This document shows positions 2,073 through 25,924 of a stretch of 64,000 nt of DNA, one piece after another. Positions within the stretch are counted from its first letter, which is position 1; each line of letters starts with the position of its first letter. The DNA comes from Chloroflexota bacterium (GTDB lineage: Bacteria > Chloroflexota > Dehalococcoidia > GIF9 > UBA5629): NCBI GenBank assembly GCA_037443085.1, contig JBBIPA010000002.1:13739-77738 (forward strand), written 5' to 3'. Position numbers and translations under genes: made by a program. The notes beneath the pieces are model-generated. The model made no database searches. It saw only the letters and a list, made by a program, of their open reading frames with translations, and was not told where the DNA came from.

Positions 2073-2568
2073 TTTTGGTTACCCCGGTAATAACAAAAAG
2101 ATTTCTTATAAAATCTGCAATAATCTGTAATATAAGCAAAGATGTGCCTATAGGAATCATCAATTTCACAGGATATACCGGTACATGCCATATCGTATCT
2201 GACATTTCCAGCCACTTAATCGAGCTTGAAGCCATACCTATCGATTTCCAGAGCAGGGCACTACAAAAAATTAGAGCAAATATTGTTGTACTTACATCTA
2301 TCAAGGCTTTTCTTTTTACTGACAGACGGCCGTAAAAGAGATCCATATTTACCATTGCTTTGTTCTTCAGGATATAGCCACCAGCTAGAACCCACATTGT
2401 TCCGAAAACATACAAGCTCAATTCATGAACCCATATTGTCGGACTGTTAAAAACACGTCGCATGATAACTTCATAAACGATTATGAGCATGATGACGATT
2501 ACAAACAGACTAATGATTCTGCCTAGCCATTCATTAATGTAGTTTATCGAATTTATTATTTTAGACAT
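2062..2568 (-). CDS. dctQ: TRAP transporter small permease subunit (DctQ family)
   Basis: 168 aa, 4-TM protein immediately upstream of and overlapping dctM. Confidence 0.8.
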   Translation of the reverse strand: MSKIINSINYINEWLGRIISLFVIVIMLIIVYEVIMRRVFNSPTIWVHELSLYVFGTMWVLAGGYILKNKAMVNMDLFYGRLSVKRKALIDVSTTIFALIFCSALLWKSIGMASSSIKWLEMSDTIWHVPVYPVKLMIPIGTSLLILQIIADFIRNLFVITGVTKIER

Positions 2569-2668
2569 TTGAATCAGTCTAAATTTGGAATAAAAATACT
2601 TGACTAAATATGTTAAGGGTGACTGGGGGAATATTTTCCCCCAGTCGAAACGAAGGGAAGGTGTCGGA

Positions 2669-3754
2669 CTATTTAATTCTACCTAGTTCTCTGAAGTAAT
2701 TTTTCACTATAGTTACCCCTTCTTTACAGTACTTGTCTCTTGCTTCCAATTCATTCCACACGTCGATTGCGATATTCTGCATATTTTGTAGCTCAGCTTC
2801 TGAGAATTGAACGAATTCGACACCTGCTGCTCTAAATTCAGCGGTTGCTTTTCTATTATATGATGCAGTGCCAATTAGAGTGCACCATACTGAATAGTAG
2901 CGGCATACATAGTCCAAAGTTATTTTAAGATCGTCCGATAAAGCATCCCAGGTTTTAAGGTTTACCAATAGGTCAATAGGATCGGCCCTTGTGATCGAGG
3001 GATTCATTAAGAGATACTTGCAGATTTCTTGATGCTTTAACGCATAGTGCTGCTCATATCCCAATATAGCACCATCAATGGTTCCAAGTTTTAGTGCCAT
3101 ATAGATTTCGCCCATCGGAAGATTCACAGCGCTGGCGCCAAGTTTCGTCATAAAATGGCCTAGCGTTCCAGTAGCTCTTATTTTCTTTCCTTTCAGATCG
3201 CTGACTGACCTAATAGGTTCTTTTGTCATTAGGCAGGCACCGGTACCTAATTCAAATCCCAGTAAATAAGCCCCCTGTTCTGCATATGCTTTTCGTAGCA
3301 CATCCTGCAGTCCTTTGTCCCACATTAATGTCCATGTATCCTGAAATGATTGGGACGCAAGTGGCATCCAATACTCTACGGAGCCGACTGGCATTTTGGG
3401 CGCCCAGAAGGTACCAACAGTTTGAGCCATTTGGACTGCTCCCTCGGCAACTGCAGCGGGAAGTTCAGCATTGGGCACTAATGAATCCATAGGATACGTT
3501 TCTATTTTTATTTGTCCTTTTGTAGCGTAATTCACCTGATCTTTAAAAAAGGAAAGGTAGATTTTATACCTATCATCACCGGAAGGAGCAAATGTAGCAA
3601 GTTTCCAGACCATTTGCTTTGCAGGTGCAGTTGCAGGGGATGTTGGTGTCATCCCCAAGCTTGGGTTGGGTTTTTCAGGACTACATCCGTATGATATGGA
3701 TAAAAGAATGGAAATTAAGATGACGCATGTAACAGCTAAAAATACTTTTTTCAT
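2669..3754 (-). CDS. dctP: TRAP transporter periplasmic substrate-binding protein (DctP family), lipoprotein
   Basis: N-terminal MKKVFLAVTCVILISILLSISYGC lipobox and a DctP-like body, preceded by an AAGGAGG RBS. Confidence 0.85.
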   Translation of the reverse strand: MKKVFLAVTCVILISILLSISYGCSPEKPNPSLGMTPTSPATAPAKQMVWKLATFAPSGDDRYKIYLSFFKDQVNYATKGQIKIETYPMDSLVPNAELPAAVAEGAVQMAQTVGTFWAPKMPVGSVEYWMPLASQSFQDTWTLMWDKGLQDVLRKAYAEQGAYLLGFELGTGACLMTKEPIRSVSDLKGKKIRATGTLGHFMTKLGASAVNLPMGEIYMALKLGTIDGAILGYEQHYALKHQEICKYLLMNPSITRADPIDLLVNLKTWDALSDDLKITLDYVCRYYSVWCTLIGTASYNRKATAEFRAAGVEFVQFSEAELQNMQNIAIDVWNELEARDKYCKEGVTIVKNYFRELGRIK

Positions 3755-3840
3755 TTTAATAAACCTCCTTTTTCAATTATGAGAGCTTATTTAAAAGATG
3801 TTTACATTTTTTATTCGTTACCTCCATTTCATGATTGATA

Positions 3841-4821
3841 CTATTTATGTACTGTGTACTGCACTCCATATCTTTCAGGATATTTCTTCAAATCTTTTTC
3901 AAATATTTCGATTATTTTGTCGGGAGTATCATACTGTGGTTTCCAGCCCCATTCTTCTCTGGCATAGCTATCATCAAATACTTTAATAATATTATGAGCG
4001 CGGGCTACGGGGAGAGATAAATCATCTTTATACGTAACCCTAGTTTCGGGGAAACGTTTCTGAAGAAATGTTTCAATATCTTTAGCATAAACAACATCTG
4101 GAACCCCTGTAACATTGTAATTAATCATTTTTATATTCTCTTTTGGCGCTTGCAATATCATATCTGCAGCACTAGCGGCATCTCTTACATATGTCATAGA
4201 AATTGTCGACTCTGCAGTAGCATAGATACAATTGTGTGGTTTGCCCAGTATGGCATCTTCAATCATCAACGGTGCCCAGTGACCTGGTGTACGAACGCCT
4301 GGCCCAATTATCGGAGTATAACGAACCGACCGGAAGTCTAGGCCAAACTTGTTACGGTAGAATCGCCCTATGCACTCACCGTATAGTTTGCAACAACCAT
4401 ACATACTAATGGGACGCTGAATGCTAAGATCTGTACATGCCTGGTCCACATGCAAACCAAAAGTCCCAATACTACTGGCGAACATCACCTTTTCTACAGA
4501 GAAAAGTCTAGCAGCTTCTAATACGTTGTAAGTTCCGATGACATTCGTTCGGAAAGAAACCCATGGATTACTATCAGATATAAAAGTAAGTACGGAGCCC
4601 ATATGATAGATTTCTTTAATATCATAATCCTTTATAGCATTAATTACTTCAGAAAAGTCACAAAGGTCTCCTCTGACAACTTTAACTTTGTTCTTAATGT
4701 CATTTATTCGGTAATGGTTGATAACAACATCGAATAGAACCACCTCTTCACTACGATCAACAAGTATGTGTGCAAGTTCCGCACCTATATATCCCGTTCC
4801 ACCCGTAATGAGTTTCGCCAC
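3841..4821 (-). CDS. NAD-dependent epimerase/dehydratase (SDR family, GalE-like)
   Basis: N-terminal GGTGYIGAEL Rossmann motif, 326 aa, 86 nt upstream of dctP on the same strand. Confidence 0.8.
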   Translation of the reverse strand: MAKLITGGTGYIGAELAHILVDRSEEVVLFDVVINHYRINDIKNKVKVVRGDLCDFSEVINAIKDYDIKEIYHMGSVLTFISDSNPWVSFRTNVIGTYNVLEAARLFSVEKVMFASSIGTFGLHVDQACTDLSIQRPISMYGCCKLYGECIGRFYRNKFGLDFRSVRYTPIIGPGVRTPGHWAPLMIEDAILGKPHNCIYATAESTISMTYVRDAASAADMILQAPKENIKMINYNVTGVPDVVYAKDIETFLQKRFPETRVTYKDDLSLPVARAHNIIKVFDDSYAREEWGWKPQYDTPDKIIEIFEKDLKKYPERYGVQYTVHK

Positions 4822-5075: not shown

Positions 5076-5777
5076 GTGAATGCCGTGGAAACATGTGAAC
5101 CAATTGGTCGCCATCAAGATAAAACCACTATTATGCTGGCGGATGACCATCCACTCATACGTAGAGCAGTTAGGGATGTTCTGGAGGAAGTTGAGGATTT
5201 TAAAATTGTTGCAGAAGCCAGCGATGGTGAGGAAGCCGTGAAACTTGCCATGGAGCTTAATCCAGATGTGGTCCTTATGGACATAAGCATGCCTGGCCTA
5301 AATGGTTTGGAAGCAACTAGGGAAATTTTGTCAAAGTCTCCCCAGATTAAAGTATTGGTGTTGACGGTTCATACAGAAACCGAGCATATTCTAGGAATAT
5401 TGGAGGCTGGCGCTGCTGGCTACCTGACAAAAAAGGTATTTGGTCCAGAGATTATTCATGCAATCAGGGCACTGGTTTCCGGTGAATCCGTTCTTTCTGA
5501 AGAAGTCCAGAGGAAGGTTATTCGTCATGCGATTAAGTACATGCCGAAAGTTACCGCCTTGGGTCAACGAGAAAAACTCACGGTAAGAGAAAAGGAAATA
5601 CTACAGTGCATTGCTCTTGGCATGAGCAACAAAGATATTGCTAATAAATTAAACCTCAGCCAGCGAACTATAAAGAATTATCTTGCTGAAATTTTTTCCA
5701 AGCTTAGGGTGAATTCGAGGACCGAAGCTGTTATCTGTGCTGCGCGAAGTGGTTTTATTAGCATTGACCCTCAGTAA
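5076..5777 (+). CDS. Two-component response regulator, NarL/FixJ (LuxR) family. The true start is probably the internal MLADDH at 5133.
   Basis: REC domain (LADDHPLIRRAVRDVLE...DVVLMDISMPGLNG) plus a C-terminal LuxR HTH (REKEILQCIALGMSNKDIANKLNLSQRTIKNY). Confidence 0.85.
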   Translation: MNAVETCEPIGRHQDKTTIMLADDHPLIRRAVRDVLEEVEDFKIVAEASDGEEAVKLAMELNPDVVLMDISMPGLNGLEATREILSKSPQIKVLVLTVHTETEHILGILEAGAAGYLTKKVFGPEIIHAIRALVSGESVLSEEVQRKVIRHAIKYMPKVTALGQREKLTVREKEILQCIALGMSNKDIANKLNLSQRTIKNYLAEIFSKLRVNSRTEAVICAARSGFISIDPQ

Positions 5778-6873
5778 AATAAATCACTGCAATTTGGCTA
5801 ACCATATGGAAAATCAACACAAAAACAATTTAATAATATGTAACGTTCATTTCTGGATTATCGTTCTTATGATAATGGGCATTACTCTGCTGTATTACGG
5901 ACGAAATCTTAATGTTGCTGACGGTTTCCCTTGGTTTGACGCAATAAGGATTTTGGAAATTGCCTATAGTGTTCACGGCAGTTTATTTACAATCCCGTTT
6001 ATTTATGCGGCTTTTGTTTTTGGCTGGCGGGAGGCTATTATAGTCTGGTCGATCTCCTTGTCGATTATATCGTTTAAGATCTTCAATCTTTCCTTTGGCC
6101 CTGCCCCATTAGTGCGCAATATTTTATCTTCGCTGATTCCTTTGTCTGTGGTTATTTTTTTAACTCTCGAACAAAATAGGAGAAAAAAAGAAAGAGAGAG
6201 CTTAAAAAAACGCGAGGATGAAAGAAGGTTGTATTTAGGTCAGGTGATTAAAGCACAGGAGGATGAGCGACATCGTATTGCACAGGAACTGCACGATGAC
6301 TTCTTACAGTCATTAATAGTCATTGCTAACCGTGCTCATAAACTAATGCTTAATAATGGCAGAGGTTCTGCCACGCATGCGGAGCAGGTTTGTTATATAA
6401 GGGATGAGGCCCTTCGGCTTTCCGAAGATTTACGGAGGTTAAGTCGTGATTTAAGACCTAGTATTTTGGATAATCGAGGATTAGTATCGGCTCTGAGAGA
6501 ACTGGCAGCTCGTTTTAATCAGGAATATGGAATCCATACAAATGTTATTACTGATTCATTATCTTCGAAGATCAATCCAGAAGCTGAGGTTATGTTATTT
6601 CGCATAATTCAAGAAGCCTTAAACAATGTTAGACGCCACGCAGAAGCCACTGAAGTTACAATTAGCGTGAAATGTCTTTCAAAACACCTAAAACTGATTG
6701 TGAAGGATAATGGTAAGGGCTTCGATATACCAAAACCAATTAGTCGTTTCACGATCGAAGGTAAGCTAGGGATCGCTGGAATGCGTGAAAGAGCCAAATA
6801 TCTGGGGGGTAATATTTCTATTACCTCTCAAAAAGGCAAGTATACCATACTAGAAGTTACTTGCCCGAAGTAA
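5737..6873 (+). CDS. Sensor histidine kinase (membrane domain, HisKA_3, HATPase_c)
   Basis: N-terminal TM helices, an H-box HRIAQELHDDFLQSL, and the C-terminal ATPase motifs NNVRRHAEA, DNGKGF and GIAGMRERAKYLGG. Confidence 0.8.
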   Translation: MLREVVLLALTLSKINHCNLANHMENQHKNNLIICNVHFWIIVLMIMGITLLYYGRNLNVADGFPWFDAIRILEIAYSVHGSLFTIPFIYAAFVFGWREAIIVWSISLSIISFKIFNLSFGPAPLVRNILSSLIPLSVVIFLTLEQNRRKKERESLKKREDERRLYLGQVIKAQEDERHRIAQELHDDFLQSLIVIANRAHKLMLNNGRGSATHAEQVCYIRDEALRLSEDLRRLSRDLRPSILDNRGLVSALRELAARFNQEYGIHTNVITDSLSSKINPEAEVMLFRIIQEALNNVRRHAEATEVTISVKCLSKHLKLIVKDNGKGFDIPKPISRFTIEGKLGIAGMRERAKYLGGNISITSQKGKYTILEVTCPK

Positions 6874-6964: not shown

Positions 6965-7435
6965 CTATGGGCGGGGCTTTTTGTCCACTTCCTGCAAGAC
7001 CATCTCCACGCATTTGGGGATGGCCTTTTTGACCTTGGTGGTGCAGTGTTCGCTGAAGGTGGTGACGTCGGCTACCTCGATGGCGAATATGACGATTTCT
7101 GCGGGCAATGATAGCCCCAGTTTGCGGCCAAGCGCAAGGGCGGAGGCGAAGTTGACGTTGTGGGTGGAGGCGGTGTGGCGGGTGACAGCCAGGTCATTGG
7201 AGTTGAGTCGGTAGACCTGCCCCGTTTTTCCCTTCCTGGTCTGGATAGCGTCGATGACGATGGCTTTGTGGTAACCAGCGAGCAAGTCCAGCAGACCCAG
7301 ACCTGCCAGGCTTGCCTCAGTCACCGTGATGTCTTTATGGTCGGCGAGGATTTTTTTAAGCTCTCTGGCAACGTAGATGCCCACACCGTCATCGCAGAGT
7401 ATCTCGTTGCCCAGCCCCAGAACCAGGGTTTTCAT
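6965..7435 (-). CDS. Hydrogenase maturation protease (HyaD/HycI/FrhD family)
   Basis: MKTLVLGLGNEILCDDGVGIYVAREL is typical of this family. The start is trimmed from the ORF-track 7579 to ATG 7435 because the longer ORF would run into mvhA, which ends at 7446. Confidence 0.8.
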   Translation of the reverse strand: MKTLVLGLGNEILCDDGVGIYVARELKKILADHKDITVTEASLAGLGLLDLLAGYHKAIVIDAIQTRKGKTGQVYRLNSNDLAVTRHTASTHNVNFASALALGRKLGLSLPAEIVIFAIEVADVTTFSEHCTTKVKKAIPKCVEMVLQEVDKKPRP

Positions 7436-7445
7436 GCGTAGCTTA

Positions 7446-8915
7446 TTATAAGTTCTGGGTGAGCCTTTTGACCACTTCGCCCTTGCTGTCGCGGATGATG
7501 ACCTCCATTGGAGCCTGTCCCGGCAGGGTATGCGTGGCGCAGCCGAAGCAGGGGTCATAGGGGCGCCAGGCCATCTCAATGCGGTTGAGCAGCCCTTCGG
7601 TGATTTCCTTGCCCGGCTTAATCATTTCCATGGCAGCTTTTTTGATGGACATATTAATAGGCGCTGCATTGTTGACCGTAGCCACGATAAGGTTGGCTTT
7701 CTTGATGACGCCGCGCTCGTCGGTTATGTAGTGGTGGGTGAGCGTGCCGCGAGGAGCTTCCACGATGCCTATGCCCTCGTCAGGTTTGGCTGTCGGGATG
7801 GTGCGAATGTCAGGGCTGGTTATTTCGGGGTCCTGGCTGAGCTCCAATAGTCTTTCGGCAGCATAGAGCAGCTCAACAAGGCGTGCCCAGTGAGTGGCTA
7901 GAGTCTGGTGGACAGGCTTGCCGCCCAGCGTAGAGTAGAACTTTTCATAGGCTTCCTGTGCCAGAGGCGTGGCCATACCGTCAGCGGCGTTCAGCCGGGA
8001 AAGAGGCGTGGACCGGAACAGGCCGCTGTCCTTGCCATCAACGAAGCCTTTCCAGCCGATCTTCTTGAGATAGGGGAATTTGATATAGGTCCAGGGCTCA
8101 ACATGCTCGGCAACATGCTCCAGGTATTCACGCGGCGAGTATTTGACGAACTCCTTGCCGTCAGGGTCAACCACTCTCACCTTGCCATCGTAGAAGTTGA
8201 CCTTGTTCTTATCATCAACCATGCCCATATAGTAGGTGCGATGGGTGTAGGCATCGCTGAGAATCATGTCCACATAGGCTTTGTTCTTGAGCACGATGTC
8301 GTCAAAGACTTTCAGGGAGAGCTTGGCGAACTCCACCGCGTCTTTTGCAGTCTGTTCCACCTCTTTTCTCTCTTCTTCGTTCAGCCCCTTGCTGATGCCG
8401 CCGGGCAGGCCGAAGACGGGGTGCACTGCTCTGCCGCCGAGCATCTGGATGATGCGGTGATTTTTCATCCGGGTGTTGATGACCGCTTTGCCCAGCTCCA
8501 GCCCCACCTTGGCGATCACGCCCAGTATATTGCGCTCGGCCACAGGGGCATCGGGACCCATGACAAAGTCGGGACCGCCGAGGATATAGAAGTGGGTGGT
8601 GTGGTCGGTCACATAGAAAGCGCTGTAGAACAGCTCGCGGAGCTTCCTGGCGGCGCTGGGTGGTTCGGCATGGAACAAGTCATCCAGCGCCTTGGTAGCA
8701 GCCATGTGGTGGGCTTCAGGGCACACGCCGCAGATGCGCTGGGTGATTTGAGGCATATCCTCAGCCAGACGCCCTTCGGCAAACTTCTCAAACCCGCGTA
8801 GCTCCGGTATCTGGAGGTAGGCATTATCCACCCCTCCAGCGTCGTTGAGGAAAATTTCTATCTTACCGTGACCCTCGAGACGGGTAATCGGGTCTATGGT
8901 TACTCTTTTTGTCAT
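7446..8915 (-). CDS. mvhA: [NiFe] hydrogenase large subunit, MvhA/VhuA type (group 3c). The C-terminal Ni ligands are cysteines, not selenocysteine.
   Basis: N-terminal RICGVCPEAHHMAA (RxCGxC) and C-terminal DPCFGCATH motifs, 489 aa. Confidence 0.9.
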   Translation of the reverse strand: MTKRVTIDPITRLEGHGKIEIFLNDAGGVDNAYLQIPELRGFEKFAEGRLAEDMPQITQRICGVCPEAHHMAATKALDDLFHAEPPSAARKLRELFYSAFYVTDHTTHFYILGGPDFVMGPDAPVAERNILGVIAKVGLELGKAVINTRMKNHRIIQMLGGRAVHPVFGLPGGISKGLNEEERKEVEQTAKDAVEFAKLSLKVFDDIVLKNKAYVDMILSDAYTHRTYYMGMVDDKNKVNFYDGKVRVVDPDGKEFVKYSPREYLEHVAEHVEPWTYIKFPYLKKIGWKGFVDGKDSGLFRSTPLSRLNAADGMATPLAQEAYEKFYSTLGGKPVHQTLATHWARLVELLYAAERLLELSQDPEITSPDIRTIPTAKPDEGIGIVEAPRGTLTHHYITDERGVIKKANLIVATVNNAAPINMSIKKAAMEMIKPGKEITEGLLNRIEMAWRPYDPCFGCATHTLPGQAPMEVIIRDSKGEVVKRLTQNL

Positions 8916-9883
8916 TTTATCCTCGCCCTCCTTAGTAACGAGTCAGGCAAACTGTAGCGGTAGAAGGTACCTACCGGGTCGGGGATATCGTCGACGATTT
9001 TTTGAATTTCATTTTTGTCGCTAGAATCGATGACCGAAGCTACGGCGCTGAGGAAATGGGCGCCCTGGTCAGTGACACCCTGTGCTGGTCCGTAGCAGCC
9101 GGTGCAGGGCATATTTGCCTGCGGGCAGGGTGCTCCACAGCCGCCCCGGGTAGCCAGCCCGGCACATAGCAATCCCTGCTCCAGGAGGCATATCTGCGGG
9201 TCGGTGGTAATTTCATATGTTCGGTAGAACTTCTTGACCTTTTTCACATCACGCTTTCGCTGGCAGTCATCGCAGACTGCCTTGGCATTGTGACTTATCA
9301 CCGCGCCCACCGGTGGTAACTTGCCCTCGATAAGCGCTTCCAGCGCCATCCAGGTGGTCTTTTCTTCCGGCGGGCAGCCGGGGATGATGTATTCCACAGG
9401 TACTGTTTGAGGTAGGCTTTTCACTGTGTCATAAAGCTCGGGAATAGTAAGCTCGCCCTCAGTCACCTGGTGCTTCGTCTGGGGAGTGACCTTATTGGGG
9501 TTATCGGTAGACTGCGTTTCCAGATACACCCGCTCGAAAATCGACTGCTTATCGAACAGGTTTGCCAGACCGGGAATACCGCCTACATAGGCGCAGGCGC
9601 CGTAGGCAATGAGCACTTTCGACTTTTCCCGGAGCAGTTTGGCCAAGTGCTCCTGCTCGGAAGTCCTGATGCCGCCGTTGAACAAGCAGACATCGATGCT
9701 CTTATCGGGCATAGCCTCGACGTCCTTGTACTTGACATCGATTGCTACAGGCCAGAACACGATATCGGCGACTTCAGCCAGCTTGAGCAGTTTCTCGCCG
9801 ATCTGGAGCTGTGCAATTTCACAACCGCCGCAGCTAGCCGCCCAGTAGAGAGCCAGTTTCAGCTTAGCCATGAGCACCTCCAT
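8912..9883 (-). CDS. mvhG: [NiFe] hydrogenase small subunit, MvhG type
   Basis: N-terminal LALYWAASCGGCEIA proximal-cluster motif and multiple Cys clusters. It overlaps the mvhA start. Confidence 0.85.
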   Translation of the reverse strand: MEVLMAKLKLALYWAASCGGCEIAQLQIGEKLLKLAEVADIVFWPVAIDVKYKDVEAMPDKSIDVCLFNGGIRTSEQEHLAKLLREKSKVLIAYGACAYVGGIPGLANLFDKQSIFERVYLETQSTDNPNKVTPQTKHQVTEGELTIPELYDTVKSLPQTVPVEYIIPGCPPEEKTTWMALEALIEGKLPPVGAVISHNAKAVCDDCQRKRDVKKVKKFYRTYEITTDPQICLLEQGLLCAGLATRGGCGAPCPQANMPCTGCYGPAQGVTDQGAHFLSAVASVIDSSDKNEIQKIVDDIPDPVGTFYRYSLPDSLLRRARIK

Positions 9884-10292
9884 TACCGCGGCTTAGACCT
9901 AGCGGTCCCAGTTCCCTGAGCTGCTCCGTCATCTCGTTGACGATGGCGGCGAATCGGTCGCCTTCAGAAGCTGAGACCCAGTCCAGCCTGACTCGTTTAT
10001 CTTCTATGCCGAACTGGTTAAGCATTTTCTTGAGCAGGGGTATCCGGCGGGCTGCTTTAACATTACCTTCAAGGTAATGACATTCGCCGGGATGTCAGCC
10101 GCAGACCAGTACGCCATCTGCTCCTTTTTCGAAGGCTTTGAGGATAAAGGTAGGCTCGACGCGGCCGCTACACATCACCCGCACCACGCGCATATTGGGG
10201 GCATATTTCTTGCGGGAGGTGCCTGCCAGGTCAGCGCCAGCATAGGAACACCAGTTACATAAGAATCCTACAATCTTCGGCTCGTAGCTCAT
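9864..10292 (-). CDS. mvhD: MvhD, the hydrogenase delta subunit that bridges Hdr, selenocysteine-containing. The in-frame TGA at 10095-10097 is read as Sec.
   Basis: ORF-track 10095..10397 ends ...GADGVLVCG at a TGA. The same frame continues [48 protein letters not shown]... to TAA at 9864-9866, rebuilding the conserved MvhD GC(U)HPGxCHY core. The start is at [17 protein letters not shown] (ATG 10292), and the plus-strand tcat at 10289-10292 gives an ATGA overlap with the hdrA stop. Confidence 0.8.
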
Positions 10293-12250
10293 ACTAAAGC
10301 TCCTTCTATCTGTGCCATAATCTGCTCGGTGGTGAAATGCCTGGTAATGATGGCAGCGCTGGGACAGGCGGCAGCGCAGGTGCCACAGCCTTTGCACAGC
10401 GCTTCGTTGATTACGGACACTTTTTTATTCTCATCAAAGGAAATGGCATTGTAAGAGCACATTCCAATACAGGTCTTGCACCCGGAGCAAAGCTCCTCCT
10501 GCACCACGGCGGTGGCAGCCTCGATTTCCACACTGCCCTTGCTGATTATGGAGAGTACTCGTGCTGCAGCTGCTGATGCCTGGGCGACGGTATCAGGAAT
10601 ATCCTTCGGTCCCTGGCAACAGCCGGCGATAAATACGCCGTCGGTGGTGGTAGCTATGGGGTCAAGCTTGGGATGCTTTTCCAGGAAGAAGCCATCTTTG
10701 CTTCTGCTGATGGAGAGCTGTCGGGCAACTTCAGCCACATCAGCCCTTGCCTCCAGTGCGGTGCTCAGCACCACCATGTCAACGGGGATGCGGCGCTGCT
10801 TGCCGAGCAAGGTGTCTTCACAGATAACCACCAGCTTTCCCTGCTCTTCAGGACTTTCGGCGGCGTCGGTAACCTCGGCAGCACGGCCGCGGATGAAATT
10901 GACACCTTCTTCCTGAAGTCGGTTGTAGAACTCTTCATAGCCTTTTCCGAAGCAGCGCAGGTCGATGTAGAGCTGGTAGATATCGGCATCGTGATTTTTT
11001 TCCCTGATAAGGTGGGAGAACTTGAGCGAATACATGCAGCAGACTCGGGAGCAGTACTCATGGTAGTTGCTGTCACGGCTGCCCACACAATGAAGGATAG
11101 CCACGCTCTTGGGCATCGAACCGTCTTTGCGCATTATCTTGCCTCCAGTGGGACCTGAGGCGCTGCTCATTCTTTCGAACTGAATGCCGCTGATGACATT
11201 GTCCAGCCGTCCGTAGCCGAACTGGGAGACAATGGTGGGGTCGAAGTTGTCGAAGCCGGTGGTGACGATGATGCAACCCACGTTCACCTCGACTGTTTTC
11301 TCCGTTTGCTCGAAATCGATAGCCTTGGCTTCACAGAACTTTTCACAGGCGCGGCATTTACCTTTGAGGAAGTAGGTGCAGTGCTCGCGGTCGATGACGG
11401 GCACATTGGGCACTGCCTGCGGGAAGGGGGTATAGATTACTTTCCTGGTGCCGACACCGCCGTCAAATTCGCTTGATGCCTTCATGGGGCATTTCTCCTG
11501 GCAGGTGCCACAGCCATTGCATTTGCTTTCATCTACATAGCGGGGCTTCTGTTTAATTTTAACCTTGAAATTACCCACGTATCCTGAAACATCCACGATT
11601 TCGCTATAAGTCATCAGCTCGATGTTTTTGTGTGACCTCACCGAGGCCATTTTCGGGGTGAGTATTCAGGCGCTACAGTCTAAAGTGGGAAAGGTCTTGT
11701 CCAGTTGCGCCATATGGCCACCGATGGAAGGCTCGCGCTCCACCAGAAACACCTTGTTACCGGAGTCGGCGATTTCCAGTGCTGCCTGGATACCAGCGAT
11801 GCCGGCGCCGACGATGAGGGTGTTGGCGTTTACCGGCACCTCTTTGGTTTCCAGCGGCTGATGGTAGTAGACGCGTCTTACTGCACCACTCACCGCTGAC
11901 TTGGCTTTCTCCGTGGCTGCTGCCTTGTCTTCGATGACCCAGGAACACTGCTCGCGGATGTTCGCCATTTCAAAGAAGTAGGGGTTCAAGCCGGCGCTGG
12001 CCAGGGCTTGTCGGAAGGTTTGCTCATGCAACCTGGGTGAGCATGAGGCAACCACCACACGGTTGATTCCCTGCTCCTTAATGTCGTTTTTTATCAGCTC
12101 TTGCCCCGGGTCGGAACACATAAATTTATATTCGCGGGCAAGGGCTACTGATGGTAGACCTTTGGCGAAATTAGTCACCTGCTCAACATCGACCGTGCCG
12201 GCGATGTTAGCGCCACAATGACAGATATAGACGCCTATTCTGGGCTCCAT
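10289..12250 (-). CDS. hdrA: Heterodisulfide reductase subunit A (HdrA, FAD and FeS flavoprotein), selenocysteine-containing. The in-frame TGA at 11666-11668 is read as Sec.
   Basis: ORF-track entries 11666..12313 and 10289..11650 share one frame and are separated only by TGA plus ILTPK. Joined they read ...[48 protein letters not shown]..., matching the conserved HdrA FPTxDCSxC(I/L)LxPKM segment with Sec at a Cys position. The start is at [13 protein letters not shown] (ATG 12250), which has an AAGGAGG RBS. Confidence 0.85.
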
Positions 12251-12264
12251 TCGCGCCTCCTTAA

Positions 12265-13143
12265 TTATTTGCTCAAATATCCAGCCAGGGCTTTTTGGGG
12301 TGAAACGATACATTTCCCCAGGCCTAAGTCTTTGCTTTCAATGCCGAATGCCACCCCCATGAGTTGAGTGAAGAATAATACGGGGATGTTGAATTTGGTG
12401 TTAAATTTGTTATTTACCTTGCTCTGGTAGACATCGAGGTTGGTCTGACAGAGCGGGCAAACAGTGACTATGCACTGAGCACCGTTGTTGGCAGCGCTGT
12501 TAAACAGTTTATGCAGCAAGCCCAGGGCAATATCTTCTTCAGATAAGATGAGCGACCCTCCGCAGCAGCGGGCTTTCAGGGGGAAGGGCACTGCCTCGGC
12601 TCCCAGGCTGGTAACTAAACCATCGAGTGATTTAGGAAATTCTGGGTGGTCGAAGCTGGGTCCCGGCCTGACAATCTGACAGCCATAGTATGGGGCTACC
12701 TTCAGCCCGCTGAGGTCTTTTTTCACCCGTGTCTTAACCTGCTCGGAGCCAATATCATTGACGAACACATCGAGGAGATGGCGCACCTTCACCGTGCCGT
12801 TATATTCCAGCTTGCCGGCTGCCAGTGCTTCTTTTACCTCACCTCTCAGTTCAGGATATTCTTTGAGGGCAGTGTTGGTTTTTATGAGGAGGACAAAGCA
12901 GGCGCTGCAGGGGGTGACCAGGTCAAAGCCTCTTTTCTCCGCCAGCGCCAGGTTGCGCGCTGAGCAGCAATAGGAAGCCAGTTCATCCACAGAAGAATAT
13001 GGCGTTGACCCGCAGCAGTTCCAATTCTCCAGCTCGATAAGTTCCACGTCCAGCGCTTTGGCCACGGCCTGGGCGGAACGGTCATAGGCCGTCGAGTTGC
13101 CATGGGCGGCAGAGCAGCCGGGAAAGTAGGTATAGTATTTCAT
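12265..13143 (-). CDS. hdrB: Heterodisulfide reductase subunit B (two CCG domains)
   Basis: Contains NWNCCGSTP and a second CCGGSL motif. 292 aa. Confidence 0.85.
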   Translation of the reverse strand: MKYYTYFPGCSAAHGNSTAYDRSAQAVAKALDVELIELENWNCCGSTPYSSVDELASYCCSARNLALAEKRGFDLVTPCSACFVLLIKTNTALKEYPELRGEVKEALAAGKLEYNGTVKVRHLLDVFVNDIGSEQVKTRVKKDLSGLKVAPYYGCQIVRPGPSFDHPEFPKSLDGLVTSLGAEAVPFPLKARCCGGSLILSEEDIALGLLHKLFNSAANNGAQCIVTVCPLCQTNLDVYQSKVNNKFNTKFNIPVLFFTQLMGVAFGIESKDLGLGKCIVSPQKALAGYLSK

Positions 13144-13721
13144 TATCGGGTTCCTCCTATTACGATGGCCTCAGCCTTGTCCAGGATGGCTTTAAGCTGG
13201 GCCTCTGCCTCCGGTTTCATTCTTTTGGCTTTGGGGGACAGTCGCCCGTGCCTCAGCAGGCTGAGTGCTTGAGGCAGCATCTTGATGGCGCGTAAGGGAT
13301 TGGTCAGCAGATAGTACCACGTCATGAAACCCATTTCCGGGACACTGCCGATGCTATAGACAAAGTCACTGAAGCTGCGATACATCTTCGGTGTGTAACT
13401 GCGCCCGCTGCTGACATTATTGCGCAATGCCAGGCATTCCAGCGTGTGCATCAGGTCTGTAGGCTTGATGCCCCGCGGACAGCGCACCGTGCACAGGTAA
13501 CAGGAGAGACAGAGCCAGGGTGAATGACTGGAGAGTACCTCGTCTCGCATGCCCGCCCGCGCCATGGCGATAAGTTGACGGGGCGTATAGTCCATCCTGG
13601 TGGCATTGGGACAGGATGCAGAACAGGTGCCACACTGGATGCAGAGCTTGACCACTTCACCGCCAGGGATGGCGCTGATTTCATTTACGAAATTAGTAGT
13701 GCCTTGCTTCTTTATTTCCAT
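13143..13721 (-). CDS. hdrC: Heterodisulfide reductase subunit C (two 4Fe-4S clusters)
   Basis: Carries the CIQCGTCSASCP and CLSCYLCTVRCP ferredoxin motifs. Its stop overlaps the hdrB start as TAATG. Confidence 0.85.
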   Translation of the reverse strand: MEIKKQGTTNFVNEISAIPGGEVVKLCIQCGTCSASCPNATRMDYTPRQLIAMARAGMRDEVLSSHSPWLCLSCYLCTVRCPRGIKPTDLMHTLECLALRNNVSSGRSYTPKMYRSFSDFVYSIGSVPEMGFMTWYYLLTNPLRAIKMLPQALSLLRHGRLSPKAKRMKPEAEAQLKAILDKAEAIVIGGTR

Positions 13722-13968
13722 TGTACACCAACCTATGCTTTATTTGATGACTTTTGCGACTTATTTGGTGGGGCCTTGTGGTATGATTATTGTTGTAGTT
13801 TCATGTTGCCTGGTTAAGTATAACACCATTTCGTATCTTGACCAAACGGCTTCAGTTATACGTTATCTACACGCTAAAATTCGCCAGAATCCGCTGCAAG
13901 AAGGGGGGAGGAGCGAGATTAGGCTGAGGCTACCTGCAGCGGATCCTGGCAGTTAAAATAGGGAGGTA

Positions 13969-14145
13969 TTATCGTCGGGCAAGCTCTTCTGCGCCTTTGA
14001 GCACCATCTCTCTTCGCTTCTGGCGCTGGCGTGCATCGCGCATCACCTGGAGCAGGCCGCTGACGTTCATATACCAGATGAACGCTATAGGGAAGGCGAT
14101 GATCATTATGCCTATGATGATCGCCACTATGAAGTACCAGGGCAT
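13969..14145 (-). CDS. Small single-TM protein (58 aa), a paralog of the 14173..14355 gene. It is below the 60 aa cut-off, so it is absent from the ORF track.
   Basis: Manual translation gives MPWYFIVAIIIGIMIIAFPIAFIWYMNVSGLLQVMRDARQRQKRREMVLKGAEELARR. An AAAGGAG RBS sits 8 nt upstream. Confidence 0.5.
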   Translation of the reverse strand: MPWYFIVAIIIGIMIIAFPIAFIWYMNVSGLLQVMRDARQRQKRREMVLKGAEELARR

Positions 14146-14172
14146 TTCGCTTTCTCCTTTCTTTGCCTAAAT

Positions 14173-14355
14173 CTATTGAGTATTTCTCTCGGTTACCGCT
14201 GCCATTCTTTTCTGTTGCTCTCGGGCAGCCCGTCTCTTCCGCGCCTCGCGCACGGAGGCATAAATACCGCCGACGTTCAGGTACCAGATAAATGCCACCG
14301 GAAAGAGAATGATGGGTATGGCTATGATTAAAGCTACAATAAATTCCCAGTGCAT
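14173..14355 (-). CDS. Small single-TM protein (60 aa) with a basic C-terminal tail
   Basis: MHWEFIVALIIAIPIILFPVAFIWYLNVGGIYASVREARKRRAAREQQKRMAAVTERNTQ. A strong AAGGAGGTG RBS lies upstream, and the protein is about 50% identical to the adjacent small ORF. Confidence 0.55.
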   Translation of the reverse strand: MHWEFIVALIIAIPIILFPVAFIWYLNVGGIYASVREARKRRAAREQQKRMAAVTERNTQ

Positions 14356-14462: not shown

Positions 14463-14488
14463 GTTGCTCTTGCCTGTTGCTCTTGCCT
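14463..14488. promoter_or_regulatory. Perfect 13 bp tandem direct repeat GTTGCTCTTGCCT x2 in the divergent intergenic region; a candidate regulator binding site.
   Basis: The exact repeat lies between the small-protein/hdr operon (minus) and the response regulator gene (plus). Confidence 0.3.
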
Positions 14489-14718: not shown

Positions 14719-15384
14719 TTGGCGAAGATTAAAATTTTAATCGCTGATGACCATGCGGTGGTTCGCGAGGGGACACGGCGGATATTGAACCAGGAAGAGG
14801 ACATGGAAGTTGTGGCGGAAGCCAGCGATGGGGATGAGGCGGTAAGTCTGGCGGCTCAGTATAGACCTGATGTGGCTATCATCGATATCTCCATGCCCCG
14901 GCTCGACGGTATTGAGGCTACCAGGCAAATAAAAACTTCCTATCCGGAGATGGTGGTGTTAATTCTCAGCGCCTATGATGATGACCAGTTTGTCTTCAGT
15001 TTGCTTGAGGCCGGTGCTGCTGGATACCTGCTAAAAAGTGTGCACGGGCAGGAGCTGGTAGATGCTGTGCGGGAAGTGTATGCCGGCGAATCAGTATTGC
15101 ATCCTTCTATTGCTAAGAAGGTGTTGAGCAAGTTTGCCAGGACACCCGGCAGGGTGGTGGAGGAGAAGCCTGATGAGCTATTGAGCAAACGGGAGATAGA
15201 GGTGTTGAAGCTGGTGACCAGGGGATTAAGCAATAAAGAGATAGCCGATGAGCTTTGTTTGAGCATACGGACAGTGCAGGGGCACGTGGGCAATATCTTC
15301 AATAAGCTGAAGGTAAGCTCCCGGACGGAGGCGGTGGTGAATGCTTTGAAGAAGGGGTGGGTGACACTTGATGACGAGGCTTGA
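14719..15384 (+). CDS. Two-component response regulator, NarL/FixJ (LuxR) family
   Basis: KIKILIADDHAVVREG...DVAIIDISMPRLDG REC domain plus a LuxR HTH (REIEVLKLVTRGLSNKEIADELCLSIRTVQGH). The start is moved to TTG 14719, downstream of the promoter, and is preceded by an RBS. Confidence 0.85.
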   Translation: MAKIKILIADDHAVVREGTRRILNQEEDMEVVAEASDGDEAVSLAAQYRPDVAIIDISMPRLDGIEATRQIKTSYPEMVVLILSAYDDDQFVFSLLEAGAAGYLLKSVHGQELVDAVREVYAGESVLHPSIAKKVLSKFARTPGRVVEEKPDELLSKREIEVLKLVTRGLSNKEIADELCLSIRTVQGHVGNIFNKLKVSSRTEAVVNALKKGWVTLDDEA

Positions 15385-15411: not shown

Positions 15412-17346
15412 GTGATGCTGCCGCAACTATCGTTAAGCTGGATTAGAGTTGTTCGCAAACCGACGTTCTGGCTTATCATCGTACTGCTGGCGTTCATCAC
15501 CGTTTTGCATTACCGCGAGGCGGTACTGATACCGTCCTTCCTCGCTGACCTGATAACGCAACTGGGCTTAAGCCGGCATGCCTTTGAGAGAATACTGTAC
15601 CTGGCGGTTATTATCTGGTCGGGTTTTTTGTTCGGCTGGAAGGGCAGTGTGGCTACTTCACTGGTGGCTCTGGTTTGCATGCTGCCCCGGGCACTGGTCA
15701 TTTCCACAACTCCCCAGGATGCCCTTTTCGAGACTGGCACCGTTTTCATCGTGGGCAATCTGGTAGCGTTTACTTTTGAGGCACTGCGCCGGGAACGGGA
15801 GCATCGTATTAGGCTGGCTGCTCTCAATGAAATCGTGGGCGCGGCCTCACAGTCACTGGAGATGAGTCAGGTGTTGCACAGCAGTGTAGATAACATTGTG
15901 AATGTGATGAAGGTGGATGCCGTACTGCTGTTTTTGCTGGATGAGGAGAGTGAAGAGCTTTCTCTGGCGGCGTACAAAGGTGTGTCAGACGAATTTGTGC
16001 GCAGTGTGGGTAAACTCAAGCTGGGTGAAGGTCTTAACGGCATGGTGGCTCAGACCGGGGAACCTGCGTATATCGAAGATGCCTCTATAGACCCCAGACT
16101 GACCAGGATGGCAGTGGCAGAGGAGGGCATCCACTCCGAGATGATTGTGCCGCTGAAATTAAAAGGAAGGGTGATGGGTACGCTGTGTGTGGCTGCTCAT
16201 AGGCGCTATGAATTTACTCGGGACGAGGTGAAAACGCTCACTGCTATCGGTAATCAGATTGGTGTTGCCCTGGAAAATGCCCGGCTTTATGAAAAAGAGC
16301 GTGAGGTTGCTGAAAAGCTTCGTATCTCTGAGGAAAGATACCGTCAGCTATTCGAGAATGCCAACGATGCCATCTGGATTAACGACGTCGACGGTAATAT
16401 TGTTTCGGCAAACGATGCGGCTAACAGGCTGGTGGGAGGTAACCTGGAAAGCCTATCACATACCAGCAGCAGGTCTTCTCTTTCCGACGAAAGCCTGCGT
16501 CTGGCAAATGAAATCAGAACCAGATTGCTACGAGGAGAGGCCGTTGATGAACCTTATGAACAAAAGCTGGTAGGAGAAGGCGGAGTTGAAAGGATTTTGA
16601 AGCTAACCACCAATGTATTTAAAGTGGATGGCAAGCCAACCGGCTTTCAACATATCGCCAGAGACGTGACCCAGGAAATACGGATGCAGGAAAATCTGCG
16701 TTTCTATCTGGAGCAGGTGACCAAGGCTCAGGAAGATGAGAGGATGCGCATTGCCCGGGAGCTTCACGATGATACCATTCAGGCTCTGGTGGCTCTGGCG
16801 CGGGAGCTAGATATGCTGGCCTCCAGCGAAGAGGGAATCTCCGAAGACAAGAAACACCTTATGGAGAATTTGAGGCAGCAGGCCAATACTACCATGGCGG
16901 GGGTACGCCGGCTGAGCCAGGATTTGCGTCCGCCCACCCTGGATCGCCTGGGGCTGGCAGCAGCCCTGGACTGGCTCGCCTCCAATGTGGAGGGCCACTC
17001 TGGCATAGCGGTGACGATGAAAAAAAATGGCAAGGAGAGGAGACTTGCCAGCGAAGTGGAGTTGCTGCTATTCCGCATTACCCAGGAAGCGCTGAGTAAT
17101 GTATGGCGTCATTCCCAGGCAACGCATGCTGAGGTGATAGTAGAGTTTGACCGCGACAGAATCAGGATAACGGTTAAAGATAATGGCAAGGGATTTGCCC
17201 TGACTCATCCTGCGGATGACCTGTCCCGGCGGGGTAAGTTTGGCCTGGTGGGGATGAAAGAGCGCGCCAAGCTATTGGGCGGCAAGCTTGAAGTGGATTC
17301 CAAACCAGGCAAAGGCACTACTATTAGCGTTGAGGCGCCGATATAG
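15412..17346 (+). CDS. Sensor histidine kinase (membrane domain, GAF, PAS, HisKA_3, HATPase_c)
   Basis: N-terminal TM helices, a GAF-like segment (DAVLLFLLDEESEELSL...), a PAS segment (YRQLFENANDAIWINDVDGNIV), an H-box RIARELHDDTIQAL, and an ATPase domain with DNGKGF. Confidence 0.85.
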   Translation: MMLPQLSLSWIRVVRKPTFWLIIVLLAFITVLHYREAVLIPSFLADLITQLGLSRHAFERILYLAVIIWSGFLFGWKGSVATSLVALVCMLPRALVISTTPQDALFETGTVFIVGNLVAFTFEALRREREHRIRLAALNEIVGAASQSLEMSQVLHSSVDNIVNVMKVDAVLLFLLDEESEELSLAAYKGVSDEFVRSVGKLKLGEGLNGMVAQTGEPAYIEDASIDPRLTRMAVAEEGIHSEMIVPLKLKGRVMGTLCVAAHRRYEFTRDEVKTLTAIGNQIGVALENARLYEKEREVAEKLRISEERYRQLFENANDAIWINDVDGNIVSANDAANRLVGGNLESLSHTSSRSSLSDESLRLANEIRTRLLRGEAVDEPYEQKLVGEGGVERILKLTTNVFKVDGKPTGFQHIARDVTQEIRMQENLRFYLEQVTKAQEDERMRIARELHDDTIQALVALARELDMLASSEEGISEDKKHLMENLRQQANTTMAGVRRLSQDLRPPTLDRLGLAAALDWLASNVEGHSGIAVTMKKNGKERRLASEVELLLFRITQEALSNVWRHSQATHAEVIVEFDRDRIRITVKDNGKGFALTHPADDLSRRGKFGLVGMKERAKLLGGKLEVDSKPGKGTTISVEAPI

Positions 17347-24107: not shown

Positions 24108-24671
24108 CTAAACCTTAACTTGATACTTGGCTTTGCCTTGCTCGTAGAGGTCGTTGCCATGGACATCGTTAATCACCGTAGCCGGGAAACTTTCCACTTC
24201 CAGGCGCAGGATAGCCTCGGCACCGAGGTCTTCATACGCTACCAGCTCTGATTTTTTGATACTCTGGGAAATCAGGGCGCCGGCACCGCCGATGGCGGCG
24301 AAGTACACTGACTTATATTTCCTCATAGCATCTTTCACTGCCTGGGTGCGGTTGCCCTTGCCAATCATGCCCTTGAGGCCTACCGACATAAGGCGGGGCG
24401 AGTAAACATCCATGCGGCCGCTGGTGGTAGGACCTGCCGAGCCGATGGCATGGCCTGGCTTGGCTGGAGACGGTCCCATGTAGTAGACGATTTGATTCTT
24501 AATATCAAAAGGGAGCTTCTCTCCCTTATCCAGCGCCTCGACCATACGTTTGTGGGCAGAATCTCTAGCTGAATAAATGACGCCGGTAATGAAGACCTGG
24601 TCGCCAGCTTCCAGGCTTTCCACAGTCTTCTCATCCAGCGGCGTGGTAATATGTACTGTCTTCATTATCAT
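24108..24671 (-). CDS. fumB: Class I fumarate hydratase, beta (C-terminal) subunit
   Basis: Fe-S hydro-lyase beta subunit pattern (GPSPAKPGHAIGSAGPTTSGRMD...AIGGAGAL). 187 aa. Confidence 0.85.
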   Translation of the reverse strand: MIMKTVHITTPLDEKTVESLEAGDQVFITGVIYSARDSAHKRMVEALDKGEKLPFDIKNQIVYYMGPSPAKPGHAIGSAGPTTSGRMDVYSPRLMSVGLKGMIGKGNRTQAVKDAMRKYKSVYFAAIGGAGALISQSIKKSELVAYEDLGAEAILRLEVESFPATVINDVHGNDLYEQGKAKYQVKV

Positions 24672-24692
24672 TCCTCCTTTAAAACAGTCGGG

Positions 24693-25538: not shown

Positions 25539-25558
25539 TGCTTTTCAGTTCCTCCTAG

Positions 25559-25924
25559 TTATGATAGCAGGGCCAGCGGCGCATAAATGCCCAGTATAAG
25601 GAAAACCACGCCGACAAAGATGATGATGCCGGTGACCACTCGCTCGGCGCGGGCTGAAGGGGTCAGCTCCAGCACAATATTGCGCAATCCGTTAAAGGCA
25701 TGATAGAGAGTGAAAATCAGCAGGGCGATATAAATGAATGCCCAAATGCCCTGTCTAGAGCGCTCTATCATTGACGACCAGGATGTGGGATGTCCAATAT
25801 CGATGCCAAAGAAACCAAGGACAGCGTCAAGGTGCTGTGTCACCATGTGGATACCAAGCAAAACTGCTATCAAGATGCCGGTTATCAGTTGCACCAGTTG
25901 CAGGTATGTATTACGCATTACCAA
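25559..25924 (-). CDS. sdhD: Succinate dehydrogenase / fumarate reductase membrane anchor subunit
   Basis: 121 aa, 3-TM protein with conserved His residues, between sdhC and sdhB. Confidence 0.6.
   Translation of the reverse strand: MVMRNTYLQLVQLITGILIAVLLGIHMVTQHLDAVLGFFGIDIGHPTSWSSMIERSRQGIWAFIYIALLIFTLYHAFNGLRNIVLELTPSARAERVVTGIIIFVGVVFLILGIYAPLALLS

Follow-up and report, generated by a model that had tools for sequence, protein, structure and literature searches.

Which disulfide is reduced by non-methanogens that carry an HdrABC-MvhADG complex is a question that has already been posed. A further bacterial case was found in a 64,000-nucleotide stretch of DNA from a Chloroflexota bacterium of the class Dehalococcoidia (contig JBBIPA010000002.1, assembly GCA_037443085.1), the whole of which is called the window here. 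We consider it likely that positions 13721-6965 of this stretch encode a cytoplasmic complex of the MvhADG/HdrABC type together with its maturation protease, and that the cluster is preceded by a lineage-specific control cassette. The enzyme cluster is already familiar in type and ordinary for its Dehalococcoidia lineage, since the same gene order was found in many bacterial phyla and Chloroflexi are among the groups for which such genes are on record. Of the two, the upstream cassette is more interesting, and it is apparently undescribed.

Organization of the hdr-mvh Cluster and Identity of Its Subunits

The cluster lies on the minus strand and consists of hdrC (13721-13143, 192 amino acids), hdrB (13143-12265, 292 amino acids), hdrA (12250-10289, 653 amino acids), mvhD (10292-9864, 142 amino acids), mvhG (9871-8912, 319 amino acids), mvhA (8915-7446) and a gene for a hydrogenase maturation endopeptidase of the HycI/HyaD family (7435-6965, 156 amino acids). 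An earlier note on this DNA had announced a complete bacterial hdrCBA-mvhDGA set with a protease, and the list of open reading frames (ORFs), the sequence and the Pfam and NCBIfam results agreed on it. The ORF of 6965-7579 formerly given for the protease was too long. The start of hdrA is an ATG with a GGAGG Shine-Dalgarno sequence at 12250, and the start at 12313 in the ORF list is not the true one.

The junctions were read from the minus-strand sequence. The genes hdrC and hdrB overlap by 1 nt (TAATG), hdrA and mvhD by 4 nt (ATGA), mvhD and mvhG by 8 nt, and mvhG and mvhA by 4 nt (ATGA); hdrB and hdrA are separated by a 14-nt spacer carrying the GGAGG Shine-Dalgarno sequence, and mvhA and the protease gene by 10 nt. 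The tight coupling claimed for the whole operon therefore holds from hdrC through the protease, with overlaps or spacers of at most 14 nt, but not for the two small transmembrane (TM) protein genes upstream: tm2 and hdrC are not coupled, because they lie 247 nt apart.

Subunit identity was based on Pfam, NCBIfam and comparison with solved PDB structures. The Pfam assignments fitted throughout (Fer4 dicluster, CCG twice, FAD/Fer4, FlpD, Oxidored_q6, NiFeSe_Hases and HycI), the top NCBIfam models were those of HdrC/B/A2 and VhuD/G/A, and the best solved-structure matches of all six core subunits were the corresponding chains of the Hdr-Mvh complexes 5ODC, 8RVU and 9SW2. HdrA aligned end to end with 5odc_A (786 bits, residues 2-651 of 653), and this alignment gave it a flavin adenine dinucleotide (FAD) domain, N-terminal, inserted and C-terminal ferredoxin domains, and selenocysteine (Sec) at the flavin-proximal position. 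MvhA, the [NiFe]-hydrogenase large subunit with Cys and not Sec ligands, had the MvhA chain 5odc_F as its best PDB match (397 bits) and reached 411 bits against NCBIfam VhuA, the other hydrogenase-group models giving 181 bits or less. Its translation contains the ligand motifs RICGVC near the N-terminus and DPCFGCATH near the C-terminus, followed by a 27-amino-acid tail for cleavage.

The hydrogenase small subunit MvhG matched 5odc_E over its full length (236 bits, the nearest non-Mvh small subunit giving 103 bits) and NCBIfam VhuG with 252 bits. MvhD was recognized by Pfam FlpD (8e-57), matched the solved MvhD chains with 169-176 bits and has the cluster motif, CNWC and G(U)HxGxCH. Two complete CCG motifs (CXnCCXnCXXC; Pfam CCG twice) with all ten motif Cys were present in the translation of HdrB, which matched solved HdrB chains over its full length (164-175 bits). 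HdrC, a 2x[4Fe-4S] ferredoxin-like subunit, was assigned to Fer4_8 and related Pfam families; two CX2CX2CX3C motifs were read in its translation, and it matched solved HdrC chains with 78-81 bits. The protease was identified by Pfam HycI (2e-17) and by TIGR00072 (113.5 bits, over the cutoff). No mcr, coenzyme M or coenzyme B genes were found among the window ORFs examined, which agrees with the previous statement that no methanogenesis genes are in view.

The nearest HdrB relatives were from metagenome-assembled genomes (MAGs) of Dehalococcoidia or Chloroflexota (65-89% identity), in keeping with the Dehalococcoidia origin suggested before. An identical MvhA sequence is present on a MAG contig of GCA_034432715.1, the annotation of which breaks hdrA in two at the TGA and covers only the first 65 codons of mvhD. 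The order hdrCBA-mvhDGA-protease was also found in Dehalococcoidia, NC10, Planctomycetota, Ignavibacteriales and one Chloroflexota MAG, and Bacteroidales and Omnitrophota loci show it as far as their contigs reach. Mvh and Hdr have been noted before in Chloroflexi MAGs and genomes (PMC3971608; PMC5736913).

Several variants of the cluster were observed among the related loci, which carry L numbers here. In four loci from NC10/Methylomirabilis MAGs (L017, L019, L020 and L024) a tandem hdrA-mvhDGA then hdrCBA-mvhDGA arrangement was found, with two proteases and Cys at all positions. In L124 (4714-8055), L015, L021-L023, L079, L092, L098 and L122, HdrA carries an insertion of about 470 amino acids at the inserted-ferredoxin domain, consisting of Fer4_20 and Pyr_redox_2 (Pfam; a GltD/NfnB-like NAD(P)H module); the HdrA of L124 retains the Sec TGA. 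The HdrA of the window has a 5-residue insertion only at this site. A formate-linked Hdr variant was found in L098 (8864-15979) and L113 (4963-10695), where hdrCBA-mvhD is followed by formate dehydrogenase (FDH)-like genes with no mvhG or mvhA; it is preceded by the two-component system, leader and tm genes that are also found in the window (see below).

Selenocysteine Codons in hdrA and mvhD

Residue 195 of HdrA and residue 66 of MvhD are predicted selenocysteines, encoded by in-frame TGA codons (11668-11666 and 10097-10095, respectively) and accompanied by bacterial-type hairpins inside the coding sequence. HdrA U195 aligned with the second Cys of DCSIC in 5odc_A, at a position that we take to adjoin the flavin in the methanogen enzyme, and MvhD U66 aligned with the first Cys of GCHxGDCHY in the solved MvhD chains. 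Codons at these columns were compared across the fetched loci; L001, which is the window's own sequence, was left out of the counts. The hdrA column has TGA in 10 related Dehalococcoidia loci and TGT or TGC in all more distant homologues, and the mvhD column has TGA in 12 related Dehalococcoidia loci and TGY elsewhere. The reading frame is intact on either side of the TGA in the related loci. The proposal of Sec in both proteins was thus upheld by the relatives, in which the downstream hairpins accompany the TGA.

A hairpin resembling a selenocysteine insertion sequence (SECIS) was located in hdrA at 11662-11637 of the minus strand (CUCACCCC...GG....GGUGAG), beginning 6 nt past the U of the UGA. 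Its consensus across the TGA-bearing relatives is CUCACM-CCGAARAUGGCC-UCGGYGAG. The complement GGCCUCGGYGAGG is present in all of these relatives and absent from the closest Cys homologues, and a few distant Cys homologues of hdrA have a similar GGCCGAGGUGG stretch. The SECIS-like hairpin of mvhD (10079-10061, minus strand; CAUUACC-UUGAA-GGUAAUG) begins 18 nt past the U of the UGA. It was found in every TGA-bearing relative as CAUUACC-loop-GGUAAU(G/A), with changes only in the loop or at the stem end, and among the TGY homologues it was clearly kept only in L006. The mvhD of that locus (L006:13076) has TGC (Cys) at the Sec column and yet retains the hairpin CAUUACC-AGGAA-GGUAAU, which suggests that the change from Sec to Cys is recent.

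Two-Component Systems and Candidate Regulator Boxes

Upstream of the cluster, and divergent from tm1, a two-component system is encoded on the plus strand. It comprises RR2 (14719-15384, 221 amino acids), a response regulator of the NarL/LuxR type with a TTG start, a Shine-Dalgarno sequence and the Pfam domains Response_reg and GerE, and HK2 (15412-17346), a membrane sensor kinase with a hydrophobic N-terminal region followed by GAF, PAS, HisKA_3 and HATPase_c (Pfam). A second LuxR-type system, RR1/HK1, lies on the plus strand at 5076-6873. Both pairs combine a LuxR/GerE receiver regulator with a HisKA_3/HATPase_c kinase according to Pfam, and RR1 and RR2 are 44% identical.

The two systems had been said to bracket the operon for dedicated control. 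For RR2/HK2 this is consistent with conserved synteny: of the 37 metagenome loci that were 3.5 kb or longer, about 25 have an RR2 orthologue (65-76% identity) in the corresponding position, divergent from the tm genes, as do several genome loci, and HK2 is conserved alongside. The statement did not hold for RR1/HK1, which converges on the protease gene, is divergent from an epimerase gene and a tripartite ATP-independent periplasmic (TRAP) DctPQM operon (756-4821), and is absent from the 3' side of hdr-mvh in the relatives examined. Its orientation, its neighbours and the missing synteny were the grounds for rejecting it as the hdr-mvh regulator; its adjacency is probably incidental, and it likely lies outside this system.

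Forty-one orthologous promoters were aligned on an invariant CGGAAG (14535-14530 in the window). A heptamer, TARGYRT, was found in register among them at -12 (21 promoters), -35 (18), about -68 (21) and about -102 (22). In the window, the candidate regulator boxes and candidate promoter occupy 14602-14541 of the minus strand, with CAAGCAT at 14547-14541, CAGGTAT at 14570-14564 and TAAGCAT-AA-ATACTCA at 14602-14587. The heptamer is not enriched across the whole window (31 matches, 29.7 expected), and the case for the boxes therefore lies entirely in their conserved register across the orthologous promoters. The TARGYRT heptamers are conserved candidates for regulator binding, and RR2 would be the protein that binds them.

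A Structured Leader Upstream of tm1

A leader of about 125 nt was delimited upstream of tm1 (14535-14411, minus strand). Its sequence was aligned downstream of the CGGAAG with MAFFT (26 sequences), and 72 sequences were fitted to a covariance model. The main helix, P3, has 10 bp formed by the arms 14491-14480 and 14428-14417 (GGAGGUAAGAG and CUCUUACCUCC, respectively). RNAalifold gave six covarying pairs for P3 in the 26 leaders, where 94% of the cells are paired and 6 of the 10 pairs show changes on both sides; in the model-fitted alignment of 72 sequences the corresponding values were 92% and 10 of 10. A pseudoknot helix, P1, joins 14532-14528 to 14449-14445, its 5' AAGYY pairing with RRCUU inside the P3 loop. 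When P1 was included, 85.6% of the cells paired, against 50% or less with the partners slid, and the observed covariation was reached in none of 500 shuffles; the outer two pairs of P1 were poorly supported.

The covariance model had a single match in the window (14535-14411, 67 bits, E 1e-13). Approximately 45 matches above 50 bits were obtained in 80 metagenome loci, nearly all on the tm strand and just upstream of a tm gene, and there was no match in the non-Dehalococcoidia loci. The sense strand scored far above the antisense strand and G-U pairs were present, both of which argue for an RNA read in the direction of the tm genes. A search of Rfam returned nothing at the gathering thresholds and, at E<=10, only chance miRNA and snoRNA matches. 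P3 has a Shine-Dalgarno-like 5' arm and an anti-Shine-Dalgarno-like 3' arm, and short-leader variants keep the former and lack the latter; these features suggest that the leader may control translation of the tm genes. In the long leaders of L084 (5700-5860), L096 and L133, an extra small ORF of about 44 amino acids (MGLHWTEVVYAAVLGIGCVGLFYAG...) was observed between the RNA motif and the tm genes, and its product is a third type of small membrane protein.

The leader of the window also contains a perfect 13-bp tandem repeat, for which a role as a control site had been suggested. The repeat exists, one base away from the 14463-14488 first reported for it: the minus-strand sequence GGCAAGAGCAACA occurs twice at 14487-14462, overlapping the 5' arm of P3 and the variable interior. 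By our estimate, the chance expectation of a perfect 13-mer tandem in the 363-nt spacer is about 5e-6. The orthologous leaders hold unrelated sequence of equal length at this place, which rules the repeat out as a conserved regulator site.

The Small Membrane Proteins and the Gap Before hdrC

Two small genes on the minus strand follow the leader. The first, tm1 (14355-14173), encodes a single-pass membrane protein of 60 amino acids and of the WYLNVGGIY...EARKRRAA type; the second, tm2 (14145-13969), which is 27 nt further on and has its own Shine-Dalgarno sequence, encodes a single-pass membrane protein of 58 amino acids and of the SG-LxQV...ARQRQKRR type. No Pfam or NCBIfam match was obtained for either. 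Among the matches listed for tm1 there were 200 homologues, none informatively named and none with a Pfam domain, and those with an organism name belonged to Dehalococcoidia or Chloroflexota. At least 548 relatives were found in metagenome contigs by a scan seeded with an alignment narrower than the broad alignment of 23 tm sequences. Across 147 distinct genes, the entropy by codon position was 0.75/0.36/1.35, and the tm genes are therefore coding and under purifying selection.

Divergent from the RR2/HK2 orthologues of the relatives lie one to five tm genes, with the two conserved subtypes kept paired. What comes after them varies: 17 loci have hdrCBA-mvhD(GA), and 6 have a Tat/Sec formate dehydrogenase accompanied by a Fer4_11 protein and NrfD; in L163 and L166 there are a protease and a second RR2-like regulator, L166 also having another NiFe hydrogenase further downstream. 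No tm genes were found beside the hdr-mvh clusters outside Dehalococcoidia in the relatives examined.

The gap between tm2 and hdrC measures 247 nt and folds with a z of -2.9. It contains an inverted repeat at 13950-13883 of the minus strand, a long hairpin whose stem measures about 19 bp and after which comes GAAUUUUAG; this element is a possible attenuator or terminator. Terminator-like hairpins with a T tail were found in 18 of the 34 distinct tm-hdrC gaps of the relatives. The hairpin of the window fails a simple terminator criterion because its loop is 26 nt long, and its action as a terminator is uncertain. A consensus scan placed a promoter-like site at 13844-13817 (minus strand; TGGTCA-16-TG-TATACT), with a near-identical sequence at the same place in L018; it is a consensus match only, in a scan that yields no more such sites than shuffled sequence. 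In L005 (8741-9431), a second set of heptamer boxes and a CGGAAG-like promoter were observed directly in the gap before hdrC, so that in some genomes a regulated promoter abuts hdrC.

Proposed Mechanism and Alternative Explanations

By analogy with the methanogen enzyme, H2 would be oxidised at the [NiFe] site of MvhA, and the electrons would pass through the clusters of MvhG and the [2Fe-2S] cluster of MvhD to the FAD of HdrA. There they would be bifurcated, one going uphill to ferredoxin via the HdrA clusters and the other downhill via HdrC to the two non-cubane clusters of HdrB, where a disulfide would be reduced. The gene content, the motifs, the Sec codons with their hairpins and the synteny were seen in the sequences; bifurcation and its direction are attributed to the window complex by homology to the solved methanogen complex.

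The proposed cassette would run from RR2/HK2 through the TARGYRT promoter, the pseudoknotted leader, the two small membrane proteins, the hairpin and the second promoter-like site to hdrC. Its conserved RNA structure, its protein family and its synteny are firmly established. We tentatively put forward, as a possibility short of an even chance, that RR2/HK2, the TARGYRT boxes, the 125-nt pseudoknotted leader and the tandem tm proteins form an undescribed, Dehalococcoidia-specific cassette placed before alternative electron-donor modules, namely those of Hdr-Mvh, Hdr-Fdh, periplasmic FDH and a further hydrogenase. The leader would in that case be a cis-regulatory RNA of a new class, gating tm translation via its Shine-Dalgarno-like and anti-Shine-Dalgarno-like arms, and the tm proteins would feed back on the kinase. 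The mechanism, leader gating and kinase feedback alike, is conjecture. The cassette is portable and most likely tunes the expression of electron-donor modules; the tm genes would be its most direct targets, and control of hdr-mvh would then need read-through of the hairpin. No report of it was found in the literature: where Dehalococcoidia, two-component systems and small membrane proteins were searched for together, no paper among those listed combined the three. While the enzyme cluster adds a case to a known question, its regulation offers a useful new lead. The cassette precedes several operons for H2 or formate oxidation in a sediment lineage that is widespread and uncultured. It opens the choice of electron donor to study through a candidate binding motif, more than 50 examples of an RNA motif and at least 548 members of a small-protein family, and the leader is a candidate RNA family not in Rfam.

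Several points weigh against this interpretation of the enzyme and its control region. Every Hdr/Mvh NCBIfam equivalog score was under the curated cutoff (HdrA2, 876 against 1100; HdrB, 214 against 345; HdrC (TIGR03290), about 92 against 160; VhuA, 411 against 800; VhuG, 252 against 450; VhuD, 142 against 215), so the window subunits are homologues, and not equivalogs, of the methanogen subunits. The score of MvhA against 7t2r_D, from the bifurcating NiFe hydrogenase of Acetomicrobium, was 379 bits, near its best of 397; because of this near tie, most of the weight of the group 3c assignment falls on MvhG, MvhD and synteny. Identity to the methanogen proteins is only about 35-40% for HdrB and HdrC, as read from the alignments, and the substrate may therefore differ. 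We know of no biochemical data on any bacterial complex of exactly this type. None of selA, selB, selC, selD or tRNA-Sec was found within the window, and a tRNA scan of it returned zero tRNA genes. As for the RNA elements, helix P2 of the leader is poorly supported (67-69% paired in the 26- and 72-sequence alignments), the single-sequence fold of the whole leader has a z of +0.1, and the SECIS folds are modest (hdrA, -9.5 kcal/mol, z -1.2; mvhD, -12.4 kcal/mol, z -2.3). Since these single-sequence statistics are weak in the case of the SECIS elements and null in that of the leader as a whole, the comparative evidence was relied on.

Of the other explanations, the one that deserves most weight, although it is unlikely, is that the complex is not an H2-consuming bifurcase: it might confurcate, with ferredoxin and a thiol yielding H2, or its HdrABC-MvhD part might use another donor, with the hydrogenase optional. 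The FDH-like genes in place of mvhGA in L098 and L113, the NAD(P)H module inserted in the HdrA of other relatives, and the HdrBCA-MvhD-FdhBA and HdrABC-MvhD-MetVF sets described in marine Chloroflexi (PMC5736913) all lend it some force. In the window, however, translational coupling ties mvhG and mvhA to mvhD, a dedicated protease gene comes next, and all solved six-subunit complexes are H2:heterodisulfide/ferredoxin reductases by their PDB molecule names; the direction itself is not readable from sequence. The idea that the in-frame TGAs are true stops, and hdrA and mvhD split or decaying genes, is scarcely credible. It matches the automatic annotation of an identical contig, in which HdrA was called as pieces of 194 and 453 amino acids and MvhD as a 65-amino-acid piece with the rest uncalled. 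Against it, the TGA stands exactly at the column of a conserved Cys in 10-12 related loci, where the frame continues unbroken to either side, and the hairpin accompanies every TGA-bearing gene while, of the TGY homologues, L006 alone clearly has it. Moreover, HdrA and the MvhD-like FrhD are established selenoprotein families in bacteria (PMC1794560).

Two further explanations concern the small membrane proteins. It could be argued from their shared strand and adjacency that they are membrane anchors or subunits of Hdr-Mvh and that the nine genes form a single operon, as the gene list of the earlier note implies; the tm genes adjoin hdrC in 17 or more metagenome loci and in several genome loci. 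To this we give little credence: the tm proteins were rejected as Hdr subunits since their genes travel with the two-component system, and the same tm pair, leader and two-component system stand before Tat/Sec-FDH-NrfD operons, which have their own anchor, and before other hydrogenases. The tm copy number ranges from 1 to 5, the clusters of other phyla do without tm genes, and the gap before hdrC holds a stable hairpin and a promoter-like site; terminator-like hairpins occupy 18 of the 34 gaps in relatives. It is more improbable still that the leader and the small hydrophobic peptides make up a module that resembles a type I toxin-antitoxin system, or is selfish in some other way, and has nothing to do with redox-operon regulation. 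Small single-TM products, a highly structured 5' leader with Shine-Dalgarno-like and anti-Shine-Dalgarno-like arms, and tandem gene copies would all suit such a module. They are outweighed by the fixed place between an orthologous two-component system and H2 or formate operons in dozens of loci, by the strong amino-acid conservation and purifying selection over at least 147 distinct genes, by the two subtypes kept as a pair, and by the lack of an antisense RNA signal, the reverse-strand model scores being low.

Other Genes of the Window

A block of C4/tricarboxylic acid (TCA) cycle genes was observed on the minus strand at 24108-37079. Its SdhB-like and SdhA-like proteins were confirmed by Pfam; a small membrane subunit, fumarate hydratase alpha and beta subunits, malic enzyme, isocitrate/isopropylmalate dehydrogenase, aconitase-like large and small subunits, a biotin carboxyl-carrier carboxylase and a carboxyltransferase were recognized from the translations only. 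No thiol:fumarate reductase was found among the genes of the block. Two paralogous HD_5/HD membrane proteins (47205-48371 and 50824-52083) flank a pyruvate phosphate dikinase-like gene (48514-50805), and further along there are a FmdE-domain protein with a C4 zinc finger (52116-52688) and a HcyBio protein for homocysteine biosynthesis and sulfur incorporation (61664-62866). The FmdE-domain and HcyBio families are better known from methanogens, and neither is a methanogenesis gene. No pointer to a partner was obtained from the window ORFs read or scanned, namely the TCA/C4, pyruvate phosphate dikinase, HD-domain, FmdE-domain and HcyBio genes.

Comparison With Known Systems

All six subunits of the window are shared with the MvhADG-HdrABC complexes of methanogens, solved from Methanothermococcus thermolithotrophicus (5ODC) and Methanothermobacter (8RVU and 9SW2). 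The FAD fold, the aligned Cys, both CCG motifs of HdrB, the MvhD cluster motif and the NiFe ligands are kept. The window differs from them in that HdrB and HdrC are far more diverged than HdrA, in that one ferredoxin motif of HdrA is CX7CX2CX3C and not CX2CX2CX3C, and in its bacterial host, where the genes are ordered hdrCBA-mvhDGA in a single cluster. Some methanococci likewise have Sec at the HdrA and VhuD positions; the SECIS elements of the window are of the bacterial type within the ORF. With the Hdr/Mvh clusters reported from bacteria (sulfate reducers, Syntrophobacter, Chloroflexi RBG-2 and marine Chloroflexi) the protein families are shared, but in contrast to HdrBCA-MvhD-FdhBA and HdrABC-MvhD-MetVF the window couples a full hydrogenase, MvhG and MvhA, to Hdr in place of FDH or MetVF.

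The regulatory part recalls NarL/NarX in the receiver and GerE (LuxR-type helix-turn-helix) domains of RR2 and in the HisKA_3 domain of HK2. Some orthologous promoters carry perfect palindromes, TAGGCAT-NN-ATGCCTA, like the 7-2-7 sites of NarL; most TARGYRT boxes, however, are direct repeats spaced 23, 33 and 34 nt, and the heptamer differs from the NarL consensus, TACYYMT. The leader is similar to cis-regulatory 5' leaders, such as riboswitches and those that sequester a Shine-Dalgarno sequence, in its place just upstream of a coding gene, its conserved covarying helix, its highly conserved unpaired stretches and its pair of Shine-Dalgarno-like and anti-Shine-Dalgarno-like arms; it differs from them in belonging to no Rfam family and in having short variants that lack the 3' arm. 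Finally, the tm proteins resemble MgrB and SafA, the modulators of PhoQ, in being shorter than 70 amino acids with a single TM helix and in being encoded beside a promoter apparently controlled by the adjacent two-component system, which would suggest feedback on the kinase. They have no sequence relationship to those proteins, as judged by the absence of any Pfam or NCBIfam match, and form two paired subtypes in one to five tandem copies. Adjacency and co-occurrence are the basis on which they may be grouped, by analogy only, with kinase modulators of the MgrB/SafA kind.

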